A stretch of DNA of 64,000 bases from Oligoflexia bacterium. GTDB lineage: Bacteria; Bdellovibrionota; Bdellovibrionia; JABDDW01. The stretch covers positions 51,973 to 115,972 of the forward strand of contig JAWXAT010000003.1 in NCBI GenBank assembly GCA_034439615.1, given 5' to 3'. The notes under the pieces are model-generated. The model made no database searches. It had not been told where the DNA came from and saw nothing but the letters and a program-made list of their open reading frames with translations. Below, one piece after another: positions 36,427 through 45,265 of the stretch (its first letter is position 1; each line of letters starts with the position of its first letter). The position numbers and the translations under genes were made by a program.

Positions 36427-38100
36427 TCACATGCGGTACACGCCACTGGGCGTGGGTGGTATTTCTTGATTCGTGCTCGCAGCCAAACCAAGCGCTAATA
36501 CTTTTCGGGTGTAAGCCGGGTTAATGATTCCGTCATCCCAAAGTCTTGCGGTGGAATAATAGGGGCTGCCTTCATTTTCATATTTTTCTAAAGTCGGTTT
36601 TTTAAACGCCTCTTGTTCTACTGGCGTCATAGTTTTTTTCTGACTACTGAGTTGATCCATCTTCACTGTTAATAAAACATTGGCTGCTTGTTCACCTCCC
36701 ATGACGCTAATACGTGCGTTGGGCCACATCCAGAGTTGTCGTGGACGAAACGCTCTGCCGCACATTCCATAATTCCCGGCACCAAAACTTCCGCCAATGA
36801 TTACGGTAAATTTAGGCACACGTGCATTGCTCACGGCCATAACCATTTTTGCACCATCTTTTGCGATGCCCTCATTTTCGTATTTTTTTCCAACCATAAA
36901 GCCCGTGATATTTTGTAAAAAAACCAACGGAATATTTCTTTGACAGCAAAGTTCAATAAAATGTGTAGTCTTTAATGCACTTTCACTAAATAAAACTCCG
37001 TTGTTGGCTATGATTCCTACGGGAAATCCCCAAATGCGTGCAAAGCCACAGACCAAAGTTGTTCCGTACAGCGCTTTGAATTCTTGAAACTCACTGCCAT
37101 CTACAATGCGCGCGATAATTTCACGAACATCAAATGGTTTTCTTGGATCATTTGGAATGATTCCATAAATTTCTTTAGAATCATAAAGTGGATCTTTTTT
37201 CTCAATTGCACTTAGAGCCAATGTTGATTGCGCAAGTGACGGGCGATTGAGATTTTGAATAATATTGCGCGTGATCTCAAGTGCGTGATTTTCATCCTCT
37301 GCAAAATGATCTGTGACCCCACTTTTTTGACAATGCACAAGTGCACCGCCAAGACTTTCGGCATCAACGATCTCACCCGTGGCAGCTTTCACAAGAGGCG
37401 GGCCACCTAAAAAAATCGTACCATTTCCTTTTACAATAACTGATTCATCACACATGGCTGGGACATAGGCTCCCCCAGCGGTGCATGAACCCATCACTAC
37501 TGCGATTTGTGGAATGCGAGCTGCTGACATACGGGCTTGATTATAAAAAATCGCTCCGAAATGATCGCGATCTGGAAACACCTCTGCTTGTAGTGGCAAA
37601 AAGGCGCCACCTGAATCTACGAGGTAAACACAGGGCAAATTATTTTCTAGGGCAATTTCTTGTGCTCTTAAATGTTTTTTAACAGTGATGGGAAAATAGG
37701 TGCCACCTTTTACTGTGGCATCGTTTGCAACGATGATGACTTCGCGACCATGAATAACACCTATGCCTGTGATGATTCCTGCGCTTGGTGCTTCGCCGTC
37801 AAACATTTCCCATGCAGCAAGGGCGCTGAATTCTAAAAAGGGCGTACCAGGGTCTATTAGTTTTTGAACGCGTTCACGTGCCGGAAGTTTACCGCGAGAT
37901 TTATGTTTTCGTAAGGCTTCTTCTCCTCCACCTGATTCAACTTGTCGCAAATGCATTTCTAATTTTTTTAAAAGTTTTGCATACGACTCTTTATTGGCGT
38001 TGAATTCAGGGCTTGATGTGTTTACTTGCGTTTCAATTGTTTCCACGGGCTCAGATTCGATCACATTTCGCGTCAAATTACAAAAAGTAAGGCCGTGCAT
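36427..38100 (-). CDS. Methylcrotonyl-CoA carboxylase beta subunit (carboxyltransferase)
   Basis: [34 protein letters not shown] and the downstream carboxyltransferase domains. The start is uncertain. ATGs at 38130 and 38100 both lie in a tandem repeat and lack an SD, so a downstream GTG (e.g. VETIETQ...) is possible. Confidence 0.85.
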
Positions 38101-38136
38101 TTTTGCATTACAAAAAGTAAGGTCGTGCATTTTTGG
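38077..38136. repeat. Tandem direct repeat, 2 x 30 bp (attacaaaaagtaaggYcgtgcatttttgS)
   Basis: Two adjacent 30-nt copies, 28/30 identical. They lie in the divergent intergenic region between mccB (-) and the RluA-family gene (+). Confidence 0.85.
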
Positions 38137-39165: not shown

Positions 39166-40215
39166 ATGCAATACAGCAAGCAATATGTGCTTGTGATTTT
39201 GAGTCTTTTTTCAATTTCTGCAATGGCACAAAATTCTACAAAGCCAAAATCGAAGCCTCGACAAAAGTCAGATCAAATTCAGCCGTATAAACGTCAGTCA
39301 CCAGCAATTGAAAATTCAGATGAATTTAGTAGTAACAAAACAGAAACTAAAAAATCAAATGCAGTTCGCACTTATTATTTTTTTCAACCAGGTGCTAAGC
39401 GAAGTGCGATTACATTAACTCCTTATTATTCAACTTATAGTACTGAGACAGGTATTGGCGGATTTCGTTTTCAAACAGTAAAGTATACCGAGACAGTAGC
39501 ACTTCTTTCATATGAATTCGGCCTTACAAGTAATCACACTGTAGGTTTAAATCTTAGTTTTGGAAGTAGTGAATTAAAATACGCTTATGAAACAAATCCT
39601 CCTCCTGAAGAGACAGAAAAAGAATCTGGTCTTGGAGATATTGTGCTGCTTTATAAGGGCTTATACCCAATGAAGAAGATGAGTCTCATCTACGGATTAA
39701 ATTTTAATTATTCGGGCACAAAAACAAGTGCCACTTCAACAGTAACGGGTACACGTAATTCAGGTGGAATGTCTTTTGCCCCGATGGTGGGTGTTCAATA
39801 TAAATTCACACCAGGCAGTGTTGTGGGAGCGAAGCTCAATTATCTTTTTAAAATGGAGCGCTCGATGACGAGTTCAGCTACGGGTGCTAACGTCGCTATA
39901 AAAGAAACGGGTGGTAGTCAGTATTTATTAACTGCATTTTATGAAAAGCAATTTGGTAAATTTTTTCTCACACCTTATGTAGGTTTTGGGAATGCGGGTG
40001 ATGTTACAACAACACCCGCAGGTGGCACAGCTGTGGCGACCAAGGGTTACACCATTATACCGTTTGGTTTCGACTCACTTTATCAAATGAGTAAAAATCT
40101 TCAGTTGGGAATTTATTACCATGGAGATAACCATGGTGCCTACACCTCAGGAACCCTTGAAGTGCTTTCATTCACCCAGCATCAAATTGGTTTGTTCGGT
40201 CGATTTTTATTCTAA
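39166..40215 (+). CDS. Putative outer-membrane beta-barrel protein
   Basis: Signal peptide MQYSKQYVLVILSLFSISAMA. Alternating amphipathic pattern. C-terminal ...GLFGRFLF with a terminal Phe typical of OMPs. Confidence 0.5.
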   Translation: MQYSKQYVLVILSLFSISAMAQNSTKPKSKPRQKSDQIQPYKRQSPAIENSDEFSSNKTETKKSNAVRTYYFFQPGAKRSAITLTPYYSTYSTETGIGGFRFQTVKYTETVALLSYEFGLTSNHTVGLNLSFGSSELKYAYETNPPPEETEKESGLGDIVLLYKGLYPMKKMSLIYGLNFNYSGTKTSATSTVTGTRNSGGMSFAPMVGVQYKFTPGSVVGAKLNYLFKMERSMTSSATGANVAIKETGGSQYLLTAFYEKQFGKFFLTPYVGFGNAGDVTTTPAGGTAVATKGYTIIPFGFDSLYQMSKNLQLGIYYHGDNHGAYTSGTLEVLSFTQHQIGLFGRFLF

Positions 40216-41896
40216 TCTTTAGGTTGCTTCAAACTGTTAATCCATTTTTGAACAACTTCACTGAGCACAGACATCGGCACACCGCCTTCGCTGAGTACGA
40301 CGCTGTGATATTGTTTGATATCAAATTTTGAACCCAATTCTTGCTTAGCTAATTCTCTCAGTCTTAAGAATTCACGTTGTCCAATTTTGTAAGCAAGAGC
40401 TTGACCGGGTGAAACAGCATAGCGATTGATTTCAGTTTGAGCATTGTGTTGAGCTATTGCTGTGTTCTCCATGAAAAACTTCAAAGCCTGGGCTCGTGAC
40501 CATTTTTTATGATGAATGCCAGTATCAACAACGAGACGTGCTGCGCGCCATGCCTGATCACTCCACATTCCAAACATCGAGAGCTCATCACGGTAAAATC
40601 CAACTTCACTCATCAAGAGTTCGCTGTAGTGAGCCCAACCTTCGACATAAGCGGTGTTACCCCAACTCGCTCTAAATCTTGGTAGATCTTTAAGCATCAA
40701 TGCGGTTGATACTTGAAGCAGATGCCCTGGTAAACCTTCATGTGCACTTAATGAATCCATGAGGTAGCGTGCTCGTGTTTCAGGTAGATATGTATTGATG
40801 TAGAAGTAGCCAGGGCGTGTGAAATTTTGGTCTGGAGCTCCTGCGTACCCGGCGGCTGCTGATTGTTCCATGACCGGATCAATTTTTCTTACTTCATATT
40901 GAGCAGGGGGCATATTTATAAACAACTTAGGTAGGAATGATTTTGCTCGTTCCATGCTTGCGGCTGCTGCTTCATAAACTTCGTCTCGAGTTTTAAAAAA
41001 GTTATTGGGATCTTGACGAACATGTATAAAAAATTCTTGAAGAGTCCCCGTGAATCCGAGTTTGCTAGCAATAGCTAGCATTTCAGTTTGGCACTTTTTA
41101 AGCTCTTCAAAACCAATTTGGTGAATGACCTCGGGATCAAGGCTTGCGGTGGTGAAATAGCTAATTAATTTTTTATAAGATTTTACACCGTTTGGTTGTG
41201 CCCAAATACCGTCGTGATCTGTAGTTGTATGGGGAAGATATTTATTTTTCAAATAGTCATGCATCTTTTTAAAAGACACGGCAATATGTGTGGATAGGGC
41301 ATCTTGTGCACGTTTTAAATAAACTGGATCTGTGATTTTTGCGACATGGGTGTTAAATGGTGATACCCCAGCGTCGAGTGCTTTAATATTGGCTTCAATC
41401 TGAGTGATGGCCAATTCAACTCCGAAGCGCGGAGCAATATAACCTTTGGTAATTCCTTTGTTCCAAGATTTAATTTTATTGTCAAAATACGCAGGCACAG
41501 CTTCAAGTCGTTTGATGAAATTTTCTAAATCTTGGGTCGTCTTCAATGGAAAGTATGTGAAAGTGTCGGCAAGCCAAACGTGAGGGCTCGAAAGTTGATT
41601 GTATTGAGCCTTTTTTGAAAACCAATAAGTGTGGATCTCCATGCTGTTGTAGCTTCGGAGCTAAGATCCTCTAGGCGATCATTATATTTAGTTTCACCTT
41701 CAAAGGTGGACCACATAGGGGCGTAGGCCATAAGGGCATCCCAATAATCTTGGCTTAATTGGGTAAGTGCTTGATTTGCAGTTTCATTGCGAGATTGTTG
41801 GGGCTGGTGCAAAAGTTTACTATCGATTCGAAATGCAAATGAAGATGTTGAAGTGAAAAATAACAATATGATTGTCAGCAGTTTATAAACACCCAT
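40212..41896 (-). pseudogene. DUF885-family protein, disrupted by a frameshift (N-terminal and C-terminal parts in different frames)
   Basis: The C-terminal ORF 40212..41642 carries the DUF885 HEGLPGHLLQ motif. The upstream ORF 41543..41896 supplies the signal peptide (MGVYKLLTIILLFFTSTSSFA) and the N-terminal conserved region. The two ORFs overlap by about 100 nt. An A6 homopolymer lies in the overlap. Confidence 0.6.
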
Positions 41897-42041
41897 GCTT
41901 TTACCCCCTGGTATGCAAAAATTAAGAAAACTATTAGGCATTGTTTTAATGAGTGGGCGGGGGAAGTGTCAATTGCAAAGATCTGTTAGATCGCAGGTTT
42001 TAAGATTTATGTGGAGTAAATAAATTATAAGTAATGATTAT

Positions 42042-42893
42042 TTAGCGAGGATCAATCGCAATCCAAAAATCTGAATCTGGATTGTATAAAACATTTGTCA
42101 CGTTTAAATTAAAATACAAAGACGGATCTTTTGTTGCACTCACGATTTGATGACCTGCAAAGCGCACAACACTATTTTGAAATTGGGAATGGAAAAACCG
42201 GTATGCATCTCGTACAGCCCCAGAAATTACTCCATCAATAACAAGTTTGTTAATATCTGCGATTGTTAAACCTGTTTTATAAGTCATCATTAATGAGTCA
42301 TTTGCGAGGTCAGCATCTAAGACCTTGGTGACGCTGACATAACTGTCGGCAAGTATTTTATATAAATTCACATGATCAGCTAATATTCTTGGCGATTTAA
42401 ATTTCTTAATTACAGTTAGACGACCTTTAATTTTTATTAGTACAACGGTTCCTTCACTGCCTTCTCCTAAAACATTTAAAATCGGATACCGTGAACCATT
42501 AAATTCTATTTCATCAATTCGGTTTTTGGGTGGAATTAATCGTTGTTTTAGTATTTGTAAATGGGCCTGAACAAGTTTGGGTTTAGCTTCTGCAATAATA
42601 GAATGGTTTTCTTGAATATATTCATGTGATAATTTTATTTTTACGTCGGGTTTAATTTCATCAAATTTTATTGGTTTACCATTTTTTTTCTCAACCCATT
42701 TTACAAAACTCGATTTAATTCGTGCATTGCCATCCAACGCCCCTTCAACTTCATCAATAAGAAATTCGTCAATTGAACTAAGTGTCTTAATGCAAAATCC
42801 ATTTGGGCGAATGGTGGCATTAGCAGGCGAGGCTAAAAAAACTAATAAAATAGGCAAAATAACTTGATACATATCACGGCTATAAGCACGCAA
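42042..42893 (-). CDS. Secreted protein with a protein-kinase-like N-lobe; truncated or atypical, possible pseudokinase
   Basis: Signal peptide MRAYSRDMYQVILPILLVFLASPANA. LGEGSEGTVV resembles a Gly-rich loop, VIKKF a beta3 Lys, and NVLYNPDSDFWIAIDPR a degenerate catalytic loop that ends at the DFG position. Confidence 0.4.
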   Translation of the reverse strand: MRAYSRDMYQVILPILLVFLASPANATIRPNGFCIKTLSSIDEFLIDEVEGALDGNARIKSSFVKWVEKKNGKPIKFDEIKPDVKIKLSHEYIQENHSIIAEAKPKLVQAHLQILKQRLIPPKNRIDEIEFNGSRYPILNVLGEGSEGTVVLIKIKGRLTVIKKFKSPRILADHVNLYKILADSYVSVTKVLDADLANDSLMMTYKTGLTIADINKLVIDGVISGAVRDAYRFFHSQFQNSVVRFAGHQIVSATKDPSLYFNLNVTNVLYNPDSDFWIAIDPR

Positions 42894-43067
42894 TATGCCA
42901 AAAATGAACTCGCTTATAAGCTGTAGGCATGGCTAGGTGCAGGTTTAAGGGGTGAATAAGATCCAGAAATTGTCACTAAAAGTGAGAAAAACTGTCATTT
43001 TCTATGGGTGACTTGCCATTGGGTTTTACGCGTGATATTTGCTTTCATCTGAGGTTTGGGGGATATA

Positions 43068-44429
43068 ATGCAATACTTTTACAAGCTAATTTTATCGTTA
43101 ACAACCTTCGTTTTCTTGACGTTTCCGGTTTCTGTAAATGCGCTAGCGCCTGTTGTTTACCCACAAATAATTGCAACTTCACTTGCCCCTTCAGGTATTG
43201 AAGCGATTATTGAATTCACTTCCACAGTTGTTATGCCTGAGAATACGCAACTCACCCAACAGACGTTAACGAATATGGCTATAAAACAGACGAGTCATCT
43301 TTTGTCTGTATTTGAAGTTGAGGAATATACAAAAAAAATTGGTGGATGGAGTTCTGATGTATTGGGTTTGATAAGCCTTGGACCCATGGTTTCAGTGACT
43401 TACATCTCAGATAAAAATACAAATCTAGGTCACGAGGTAACTTACAGAGCCGTTCAAAGAGTAATTGCGCGTCGAAGACTCATACAGCCAGGTGAAACAA
43501 AAGCCCTGCCACTTTTTATTCCACGAGATCCTTCAAAAATTTATGCATTAGAATGTACATCTCGTCAGGTACCTGAGAAAGAATTTTTCTTTTATTTTTG
43601 GAATCCTTTCAAGCGAGGTTGTGCTTCGCAATTAACGGGTGTGAATAAAGTAGATGAAGTCACAGCGTCACTTACGGGATTACCAATTCCTAATCCAGAA
43701 ACAACTCGTCCTGATTACGCAAGTCTTGCTGCACAAGCGAGAGCAAGAGGTGAGTTGCGCGTATCTGTTTTACTTGGATTTGATAGCAGTTGGAGAAATC
43801 GTCAAGATGTTGGGAGACGCAGTTACAACGCCCTTATTGATCAATTTGTAAATAAATCTGGATTCCAAATTGTGAAGGTTGGCGATTACAAAACAAAACC
43901 ATTTATTGATTTGGTACGCGCCGAAAGTGCGACGCAGCCAAAAGTAAGTCTGTCAATTTCGCTTACTGAAAGTGATATAGACAGGCCCGTCATTTTTGCT
44001 CAGCGCGCTCGTTATGCTTATGAAAATTCAGATATAGTTGTATATGCAGGGCATTCTGGTCTTGGTGGAAGCTTGAACTTAGACAAAATTGCAGCGTTTA
44101 GTAGCTCGAATCCGGCAATGCCCATTCCGATTCGGTTTCCGAATGCTTATCAGATTTTGTATTTTGATAGTTGTGCTAGTTATTATTTCTACGCTCATTC
44201 ATATGCATTGCAACGTCGTGGAATGCGCAAAGTCGATGTTATCAGTAATGGTCTTGCGAGTTATTTTCTCAGTCAAAATGAAGATATTCGTGTATTTGTA
44301 AAAACCTTTAGTGCCCTTCAAACTTTTATCGATGCTGAAGGATCACCTTCATGGCTCGATATTCTTAATCGCATTGAACGAGCACCTGGGCCAAGCTATT
44401 TTGTAAACGTGTTACAAGTACGTCAGTGA
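43068..44429 (+). CDS. Secreted clan-CD cysteine peptidase-like protein (caspase / clostripain / gingipain-like His-Cys dyad)
   Basis: Signal peptide MQYFYKLILSLTTFVFLTFPVSVNA. IVVYAGHSG (beta-strand + HG) followed about 44 aa later by ILYFDSCAS (beta-strand + DxC) matches the clan CD dyad spacing. Confidence 0.4.
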   Translation: MQYFYKLILSLTTFVFLTFPVSVNALAPVVYPQIIATSLAPSGIEAIIEFTSTVVMPENTQLTQQTLTNMAIKQTSHLLSVFEVEEYTKKIGGWSSDVLGLISLGPMVSVTYISDKNTNLGHEVTYRAVQRVIARRRLIQPGETKALPLFIPRDPSKIYALECTSRQVPEKEFFFYFWNPFKRGCASQLTGVNKVDEVTASLTGLPIPNPETTRPDYASLAAQARARGELRVSVLLGFDSSWRNRQDVGRRSYNALIDQFVNKSGFQIVKVGDYKTKPFIDLVRAESATQPKVSLSISLTESDIDRPVIFAQRARYAYENSDIVVYAGHSGLGGSLNLDKIAAFSSSNPAMPIPIRFPNAYQILYFDSCASYYFYAHSYALQRRGMRKVDVISNGLASYFLSQNEDIRVFVKTFSALQTFIDAEGSPSWLDILNRIERAPGPSYFVNVLQVRQ

Positions 44430-45265
44430 AGCGGGTGAACAGGTGGAGATTTTAAATGTCTTACAAAGCTTCGAAGTTTTTCAACCTCAGGTGATGGCGG
44501 CGATTTATTCATAAACAAAGTGAGATCGTTGTGGGCGTCAGCGAAATGTCCAATTTGGTATAATAACAAGCCACGTTCTTTATATTCATTCACCCGCATG
44601 GGGCTAGTTTCAATAATCATATCTAATACTGTTAAGAGCGATGACCACTGTCTCGAATCAAGATACATTCCTTTGAGCATTCCTAAAAAGCGAACCATCA
44701 TTTGCGCTTCAGTAGGTGTTTCAAGAAAAGTTCCGTTAAGAGCGACACTTTTGCCCATTTTTTGAGATAACTTTTTTTGTAGTTCAGAAACAGAAAGAAG
44801 TTTTCCTTGATCTGAAGGGTCTAAGAAAAAAAGTTGATGGCGATAAAGTGTCTTTACATAAAAATGGCCAGGAAAATTTACAAAATTTATCGGTGCAAGA
44901 CCTGAGCGTTGACAAAGTTCACGGTAAAGTAAAGCCAGTGCTAATGGGTGACCTTCGCGGTTTTCTAAAAGCTTAGCCATAAAAAGTGAATCGGGATTAT
45001 TTTCCCCTGTTTTTTTAAATTGTTTCTTATTAAATAAAAAATCATTGAGCGCTGATATTCCTTCAATAGCATCATTGTAAGGTTGGTTTTGTGAAGCAAA
45101 CTCATGAATAAGAAAATCGATACGTTTACTTGTTTTTTGAGCGCATACTTGTTTGCCGCTTAAGATTTCATGGGTTAATAAAATGAGTGGAAGTGTGGTT
45201 ACCCGAGAAGGTGATGCTGCTAATGCCACTCTATATGATGTCAAATCGATACGAGCAATACTCAT
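44423..45265 (-). CDS. SirB1/YchA-like protein (transglutaminase-like + TPR-like, UPF0162 family)
   Basis: REGHPLALALLYRELCQRSGLAPINFVNFPGHFYVK matches the conserved core of the YchA/SirB1 family. Confidence 0.6.
   Translation of the reverse strand: MSIARIDLTSYRVALAASPSRVTTLPLILLTHEILSGKQVCAQKTSKRIDFLIHEFASQNQPYNDAIEGISALNDFLFNKKQFKKTGENNPDSLFMAKLLENREGHPLALALLYRELCQRSGLAPINFVNFPGHFYVKTLYRHQLFFLDPSDQGKLLSVSELQKKLSQKMGKSVALNGTFLETPTEAQMMVRFLGMLKGMYLDSRQWSSLLTVLDMIIETSPMRVNEYKERGLLLYQIGHFADAHNDLTLFMNKSPPSPEVEKLRSFVRHLKSPPVHPLH

Follow-up and report, generated by a model that had tools for sequence, protein, structure and literature searches.

Adjacent genes for an exported minimal kinase-like protein and a putative clan-CD-like cysteine peptidase, probably independent, in an Oligoflexia bacterium

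We describe two neighboring, divergently oriented genes, here called A and B, in a 64,000-nucleotide stretch of an Oligoflexia bacterium genome (GenBank assembly GCA_034439615.1, contig JAWXAT010000003.1, positions 51,973 to 115,972), to which we refer as the window. Gene A (42042..42893, minus strand) is predicted to encode an exported mini kinase-like protein, and gene B (43068..44429, plus strand) an exported, clan-CD-like putative cysteine peptidase of 453 residues. Our findings suggest, with a probability of about 0.66, that A and B are two independent genes for Sec-exported proteins rather than a two-gene system, A being a minimal kinase-like protein and B clan-CD-like, and that a lineage-specific insertion joined them.

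Both open reading frames (ORFs) lie where a first-pass annotation of this DNA had placed them, in agreement with the ORF list and the NCBI annotation. The product of A has 283 residues if translation begins at the TTG codon at 42893 or 276 if it begins at the ATG at 42872, with the stop codon at 42042-42044. The 276-residue form, to which all residue numbers of A refer, is identical to NCBI SGI74_00805, a "hypothetical protein" from an Oligoflexia bacterium encoded on a 152,829-bp contig of a metagenome-assembled genome, and B matches NCBI SGI74_00810.

Genomic context of genes A and B

In the closest relatives of B, the syntenic order runs from a carboxyltransferase gene through an RluA-like pseudouridine synthase gene and an outer membrane protein (OMP)-like gene to B, followed by genes for a SirB1-like transglutaminase with tetratricopeptide repeats, a protein of 311-317 residues, a SpoIIE phosphatase, and a lipase. 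B directly follows the OMP-like gene in the relatives L001, L002, and L003, and in the window a 2.7-kb minus-strand segment, consisting of a DUF885 gene and A (40212-42893), lies between the two. The adjacency of A and B would have arisen through a lineage-specific insertion of A and the DUF885 gene upstream of B. We found no flanking repeats, no mobile-element genes, and no clear GC anomaly associated with this segment.

The first-pass annotation had described A and B as a divergent pair sharing a promoter region of ~170 bp, and the two could be imagined as a functional module of exported effectors, one kinase-like and one a protease, coregulated from that shared promoter. Their divergent starts are indeed only 174 bp apart (42894..43067; 195 bp if A begins at its ATG), and both products look exported, yet A and B co-occur nowhere else in the loci compared. 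A hidden Markov model (HMM) of the A family detected no A homologue within ~6 kb in any of 79 other B loci, tblastn detected no B homologue in the 5 other A-family loci, and the closest syntenic relatives carry B without A. The measured gap is as the annotation had it; the shared promoter is not, given that the part of the region proximal to B is kept in genomes without A. The ~90 bp upstream of B (42980-43067) is conserved across three genomes (the window, L001, and L002) and contains a GGGGGA Shine-Dalgarno sequence and a CTTGCAA-containing block, with the ATG of B and the GGGGGA sequence preserved in the two relatives. Because it is conserved in relatives that lack A, we assign this block to B's own upstream region, where it may serve as the promoter or operator of B. 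Promoter-consensus sites in the intergenic region were no more frequent than in shuffled sequence (7 versus 8.0 +/- 2.6), and a regulatory RNA search of the region returned no Rfam match and nothing near threshold. We consider it very improbable that A and B form a coregulated module.

The DUF885 gene that flanks A (40212..41941, minus strand; Pfam E-value [E] of 1e-142) lies in the segment absent from the syntenic relatives and is split by a frameshift into two overlapping ORFs, with the frame switching at an A6/T6 homopolymer (41611-41616). Because the frame changes at this run, the split gene is either a pseudogene or the product of an assembly or sequencing error.

Gene A: a kinase-like fold that ends at the DFG position

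We favor a reading that places A in a rare, as yet undescribed lineage of the protein-kinase-like superfamily. No family like A is described in the literature searched, although a description outside that literature is possible. A word-indexed homologue search had returned A alone, as though it were an orphan, which was overturned when 1.84 billion representatives were scanned exhaustively with HMMER, yielding 19 relatives of 166-321 residues with 21-40% identity. The kinase-like nature of A, as first proposed, was borne out by a profile search of the PDB, by pairwise profile alignment, and by structure prediction. The family profile matched 59 PDB sequences at an E below 10, 56 of which were protein kinases aligned from the Gly-rich loop to the hinge; the best matches were Staphylococcus Stk1 (E of 5.7e-4) and Bud32 (1.5e-3), followed by TTK, Aurora, ROCK, and PAK. 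Alignment to PKA with hhalign gave 70% probability and an E of 3.9e-5, placing the Gly-rich loop LGEGSEGTV (pattern GxGxxGxV; 42444..42470, minus strand), which is partly conserved in the family, on LGTGSFGRV (G50-V57), Lys156 of the β3 motif VIKKF (42405..42407, minus strand) on K72, and hinge on hinge. The AlphaFold2 (AF2) model of A is compact and confident (predicted local distance difference test score [pLDDT] of 88.8 and predicted template-modeling score [pTM] of 0.83) and has the two lobes of a kinase fold, namely an N-lobe β-sheet with αC and, beyond the hinge, a C-lobe core of helices that bears a catalytic/Mg loop. Within the kinase-like core (residues 120-276; 42045..42515, minus strand), the order of elements is β1-β5, αC, hinge, αD, αE, the Asn loop, β7-β8, the DFG-like Asp, and the chain end. 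The earlier description of A as an "N-lobe protein" was therefore too narrow, since the core also holds αD, αE, the Asn loop, β7-β8, and the DFG-like Asp.

Column identity in the family alignment averages 25%, and besides the start Met its near-invariant positions are L135, K156, G201, N260, and D274. K156 lies in V-I-K-x-F, G201 in the hinge-like [YF]xxG[LI]T, and N260 and D274, which are 14 residues apart (13 in PKA), in PHxxNVxYNPxTxxWxIIDP; the second and third Gly of the Gly-rich loop vary. Among 20 A relatives, conservation is at least 90% for K156, for Asn260 (42093..42095, minus strand), the putative equivalent of the catalytic-loop Asn, and for Asp274 (42051..42053, minus strand), the DFG-like Asp, after which only Pro-Arg and the stop codon follow. 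The motifs reported in the first reading of the protein are present, namely LGEGSEGTVV at residue 135, VIKKF at residue 154, and NVLYNPDSDFWIAIDPR at residues 260-276, directly followed by the stop.

A fits no named kinase family, given that it lacks the catalytic Asp, the αC Glu, and anything past the DFG Asp. The αC Glu of the canonical Lys-Glu pair is replaced by His167; this position is His in most family members and Glu or Gln in a few, and in the alignment of A with APH(3')-IIIa, the αC Glu60 stands opposite the family-conserved His167. The activation segment (DFG...APE), αF, and the αG-αI lobe are absent, and A does not reach the Pfam gathering threshold of Pkinase. It has no Pkinase match at all, and only sub-threshold matches to DUF5898, FTA2, and PrkT (all three over residues 131-182) and to APH were seen among Pfam and NCBIfam models. 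A single-sequence search yielded nothing useful, and comparison with the PADLOC defense models gave only an insignificant match to mad6.

Several observations weigh against the favored reading. The catalytic HRD/HGD Asp, expected five residues before the loop Asn, is Asn255 in A, in line with the degenerate catalytic loop noted in the first-pass annotation, and in the family this position is variable (N, T, R, Y, H, L, or D). The Pro-His three residues before the Asn, otherwise family conserved, is Leu-Asn in the window copy. With the catalytic base absent and Pro-His replaced by Leu-Asn, A may be catalytically dead. Spacing and predicted strands, rather than a structural alignment, are the grounds for equating N260 and D274 with kinase N171 and D184, and the two residues flank β7-β8 in the AF2 model. 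ATP is normally unavailable outside the cytoplasm, and the signal peptide that would take A there was, like that of B, judged by eye and hydropathy without a dedicated predictor.

These observations feed the serious rival to the favored reading, that A is a pure pseudokinase, that is, a noncatalytic exported scaffold or binding protein with a kinase-like shape. Such a protein could do without the HRD Asp missing from the family, the Pro-His missing from the window copy, the activation segment and substrate-binding C-lobe, and the ATP missing from an extracytoplasmic location. However, in an alignment whose columns average only 25% identity, no polar residues are better conserved than the three ATP/Mg ligands (K156, N260, and D274). 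This, together with the fixed chain end, suggests that a nucleotide/metal site has been under selection, and scaffolding pseudokinases usually lose such a site. For this reason, we favor a nucleotide/metal function over a pure scaffold, which we regard as the less likely of the two. The first-pass annotation had called A a truncated kinase or pseudokinase, and its observation that the chain ends at the DFG position is correct. A might accordingly be taken for a decayed fragment that lost its C-lobe through a neighboring insertion or a frameshift, particularly with a frameshifted DUF885 gene next to it. The family alignment refutes this: 18 of 18 informative members end exactly two residues past the equivalent of Asp274, and these homologues lie on unrelated contigs with a GC content of 36-54% and with downstream genes after them. 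Because all of them stop at the same point, the short C terminus is a family trait and not a truncation. The AF2 model is that of a compact protein, and the stop of A is followed after only ~100 bp by the next gene, which likewise speaks against decay. We give decay next to no chance.

Under the reading of A as an atypical kinase-like protein, it would keep the elements for binding nucleotide and Mg (the Gly-rich loop, Lys156, His167 at the αC Glu position, Asn260, and Asp274) on a core that would dispense with the HRD Asp, the activation segment, and αF-αI and end two residues after the Asp. A probably binds nucleotide and Mg, as an enzyme or a switch, outside the cytoplasm or in a target cell, and it is more likely to be similar to small ATP-dependent enzymes of the RIO/Bud32/APH type than to a canonical protein kinase. 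The N-terminal helical region (residues 30-115; 42528..42785, minus strand), modeled with helices at residues 49-64 and 75-111 and a pLDDT of 82-98, would pack on the stunted C-lobe and replace the missing αF-αI scaffold. A bolder proposal, which we think improbable, is that A represents a new class of kinase-fold enzymes, exported by Sec and "open" at the C terminus, in which the terminal carboxylate sits in the active-site cleft as a metal ligand or general base in place of the HRD Asp and the N-terminal helices stand in for αF-αI, yielding a minimal phosphotransferase or nucleoside triphosphatase in the periplasm, on the surface, or in prey or host.

The nearest known systems are the small atypical kinase-like enzymes (RIO1/RIO2, Bud32/PRPK, archaeal Ark1, and the APH type) and the Hanks-type kinases YabT and PknB. 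In contrast to these, A lacks αF and all later helices as well as the HRD Asp, carries His (or, in relatives, Glu or Gln) in place of the αC Glu, has an 85-residue N-terminal helical extension and a Sec signal peptide, and passes no Pfam or NCBIfam kinase model. A pared-down or atypical fold is also what A has in common with kinase-fold proteins that act outside the cytoplasm of their producer. Those proteins, however, retain a catalytic Asp together with a larger C-lobe. The bacterial effectors among them use type III signals whereas A has a Sec signal, and no sequence relationship between them and A was detected.

Export of A is suggested by its N terminus, which, like that of B, looks Sec type from sequence and hydropathy, as had been claimed for both proteins. 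Including the extension from the TTG start, the signal peptide (42816..42893, minus strand) reads (MRAYSRD)MYQVILPILLVFLASPANA and would be cut before TIR; written from the TTG codon, the N terminus is M(RAYSRDM)YQVILPILLVFLASPANA, with a Sec n/h/c layout that ends ANA|T and is cut before T. Use of the TTG start would add a positively charged n-region. A similar N terminus is found in at least 11 of 14 near-full-length relatives. Shortly after the predicted cleavage site lies Cys27 (42792..42794, minus strand), the sole Cys of the protein. Most full-length members of the family (P0008-P0026) likewise have a single Cys 5-15 residues past the predicted cleavage site, usually the only one in the protein, and it might serve in an intermolecular disulfide or as an attachment site. 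We found no conserved partner of A, as all five genomic contexts inspected were different. In one of them, a metagenomic contig (L010, 2351-7582), the A-family gene is flanked by two Exo_endo_phos (endonuclease/exonuclease/phosphatase) genes and an inositol-monophosphatase-family gene, a phosphoinositide-effector-like context that was seen only once.

Gene B: a probable clan-CD-like family in Bdellovibrionota and Elusimicrobiota

The B family is uncharacterized, exported, and widespread in Bdellovibrionota and Elusimicrobiota. A word-indexed search had suggested a family of 6 members, which was overturned by a pattern and tblastn scan of GTDB species genomes that recovered 74 loci, ~33 of them in Bdellovibrionota, ~33 in Elusimicrobiota, and the rest unlabeled. 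Members occur in the cultured Bdellovibrio bacteriovorus s4 and in Bdellovibrio sp. HCB117, HCB-110, and HCB-162, as well as in Bacteriovorax stolpii, Silvanigrella, Oligoflexus, and Pseudobdellovibrio; the B. bacteriovorus orthologue is WP_063206321 / A0A162H1E2. A signal peptide or a lipoprotein-like signal stands at the N terminus of nearly all 74 relatives. In the window, the Sec-type signal peptide of B, MQYFYKLILSLTTFVFLTFPVSVNA, is encoded at 43068..43142 (plus strand), ends VNA|L, and would be cut before L.

We consider it probable that B is a clan-CD-like cysteine peptidase or transpeptidase. The signature of clan CD consists of a His-Gly motif and a Cys preceded by a small residue, each after a hydrophobic block. 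B has the hydrophobic blocks IVVY and ILYF, and in the family the Cys is preceded by Ser or Gly. The motifs IVVYAGHSG (residue 323, with His329) and ILYFDSCAS (residue 363, with Cys369) were correctly identified in the first-pass annotation, although its spacing of 44 residues was approximate, given that His329 and Cys369 are 40 residues apart. Eight residues never vary among 70 full-length members: H329, C369, C163, C185, D247, Q362, Y126, and P152. His329 (YAGHSGLGG; 44052..44054, plus strand) and Cys369 (FDSCAS; 44172..44174, plus strand) are thus each conserved in 70 of 70. The count for His329 is biased and to that extent tells less in favor of a catalytic dyad, because YAGHSG was one of the two patterns used to retrieve the loci; Cys369 was in no pattern, so its count is unbiased. 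Both residues are also invariant in 6 homologues found independently of the patterns, and the conservation of the His and Cys among relatives, which had been named beforehand as a check on the clan CD call, is borne out.

Clan CD is defined by the caspase-hemoglobinase fold, a six-stranded sheet of order 2-1-3-4-5-6 with the last strand antiparallel and five flanking helices (PMC4357240). The AF2 model of B (pLDDT of 73.7 and pTM of 0.71, from only 6 sequences) has an N-terminal β-rich domain (residues 35-205; 43170..43682, plus strand) and a C-terminal α/β domain of caspase/gingipain-like type (residues 228-453; 43749..44426, plus strand). The elements of the latter follow in the order β1-α1-β2-(hairpin)-α2-β3-α3-β4-α4-β5-α5-β6, as in caspases. 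His329 comes directly after β3 (323-327) and Cys369 directly after β4 (361-366), so that the putative dyad stands at the ends of these two strands, which is the clan CD layout (PMC4357240). A Foldseek search with the model found a secreted Bacteroides C11 protease at an E of 9e-4. Peptidase_C25 matched two Elusimicrobia members below threshold (E of 0.07-0.1; 12.3-12.7 bits against a cutoff of 23), and these matches cover exactly the His345-to-Cys380 block of the two proteins. One B. bacteriovorus member is named "Gingipain domain-containing protein" in UniRef. The original clan CD-like call appears essentially right.

Other results speak against this assignment, and they leave some room for the alternative that B is not of clan CD but another α/β (Rossmann-like) binding protein or a thiol enzyme, with a His and Cys that, for example, bind metal. 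An invariant Ser stands between the His of B and the Gly (His-Ser-Gly rather than His-Gly), and the loop after His329 was modeled with a pLDDT below 50. The top Foldseek matches were small GTPases, with template-modeling scores of only 0.18-0.24. In the best hhalign segment, Cys369 fell on C163 of caspase-3 and C189 of legumain (the legumain query sequence was confirmed against the PDB), but neither alignment was significant (E of 0.21 and 0.33), and the B profile had no match among PDB sequences. No Pfam, NCBIfam, or PADLOC model matches B, and the clan CD Pfam models (C14, C13, C11, C25, C50, C80, and CHAT) matched neither B nor its first 5 homologues at an E of up to 10. On the other side stand the placement of the His and Cys in the model and their invariance, and we judge the alternative rather unlikely.

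As a clan-CD-like enzyme, B would act in the periplasm or after secretion as a cysteine endopeptidase or transpeptidase, with Cys369 as the nucleophile and His329 as the general base, and the invariant Asp247 on loop L1 may make it specific for basic P1 residues. The invariant pair Cys163/Cys185 (43554-43556 and 43620-43622) likely forms a disulfide, and an extracytoplasmic, oxidizing location of B fits this pair. The clan CD families compared were gingipains (C25), separase (C50), legumain (C13), caspases, metacaspases, and paracaspase (C14), clostripain/PmC11 (C11), and CHAT. Against these, B reaches no Pfam threshold (the best being Peptidase_C25 at an E of 0.07, in two relatives), has His-Ser-Gly, and carries a unique N-terminal domain with the Cys pair and the strongly conserved motif CTDxHYNSxGDFWYFWNPYxxGC (43554-43640 in the window, residues 163-190; L011-L084). 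D165, H167, Y168, and D173 of this motif have been lost from the window B and from its two closest relatives, so that a possible metal or ligand site there would be dispensable in the window subclade.

The first-pass annotation had also thought of effectors of a predatory lifestyle, and for B this reading is weakened by the equal presence of the family in Elusimicrobiota; the literature searched links no gingipain-like enzyme of this kind to Bdellovibrio. B has no conserved neighbor, the commonest one occurring in at most 11 of 80 loci. The OMP-like gene upstream is common only to close relatives and shows no detectable relationship to the gene that precedes the B-family member in Bdellovibrio or in distant homologues. 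Downstream, a SirB1-like gene (Transglut_core2 and TPR_9; 44423-45265, minus strand) converges with B and overlaps it by 7 bp over the B stop codon, and the same convergent overlap is retained in L001, L002, and L003. In one Elusimicrobiota locus (L038, 7841-8347), a second, partial B paralogue (HMM E of 4.6e-60) follows the full-length gene at a distance of ~0.9 kb.

Other features and implications

Farther from the two genes, the intergenic stretch that separates the carboxyltransferase gene from the RluA-like gene contains a tandem duplication of a 30-bp unit (38077-38135; 2 copies, 96% match).

In summary, A and B answer no long-standing question, and their value lies in being well-defined targets with named catalytic residues. 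If the reading of A is true, the protein would widen the limits on how small and atypical kinase-like enzymes can be, given that it ends at the DFG Asp, has no catalytic Asp, and is Sec exported, and it would raise the question of nucleotide-dependent chemistry outside the bacterial cytoplasm. The B family, which occurs in Bdellovibrio bacteriovorus, a predator amenable to genetics, as well as across Elusimicrobiota, has neither a Pfam family nor a described function. If B is an active clan CD peptidase, it would represent a new family in the clan and a candidate for the processing of envelope or prey proteins.

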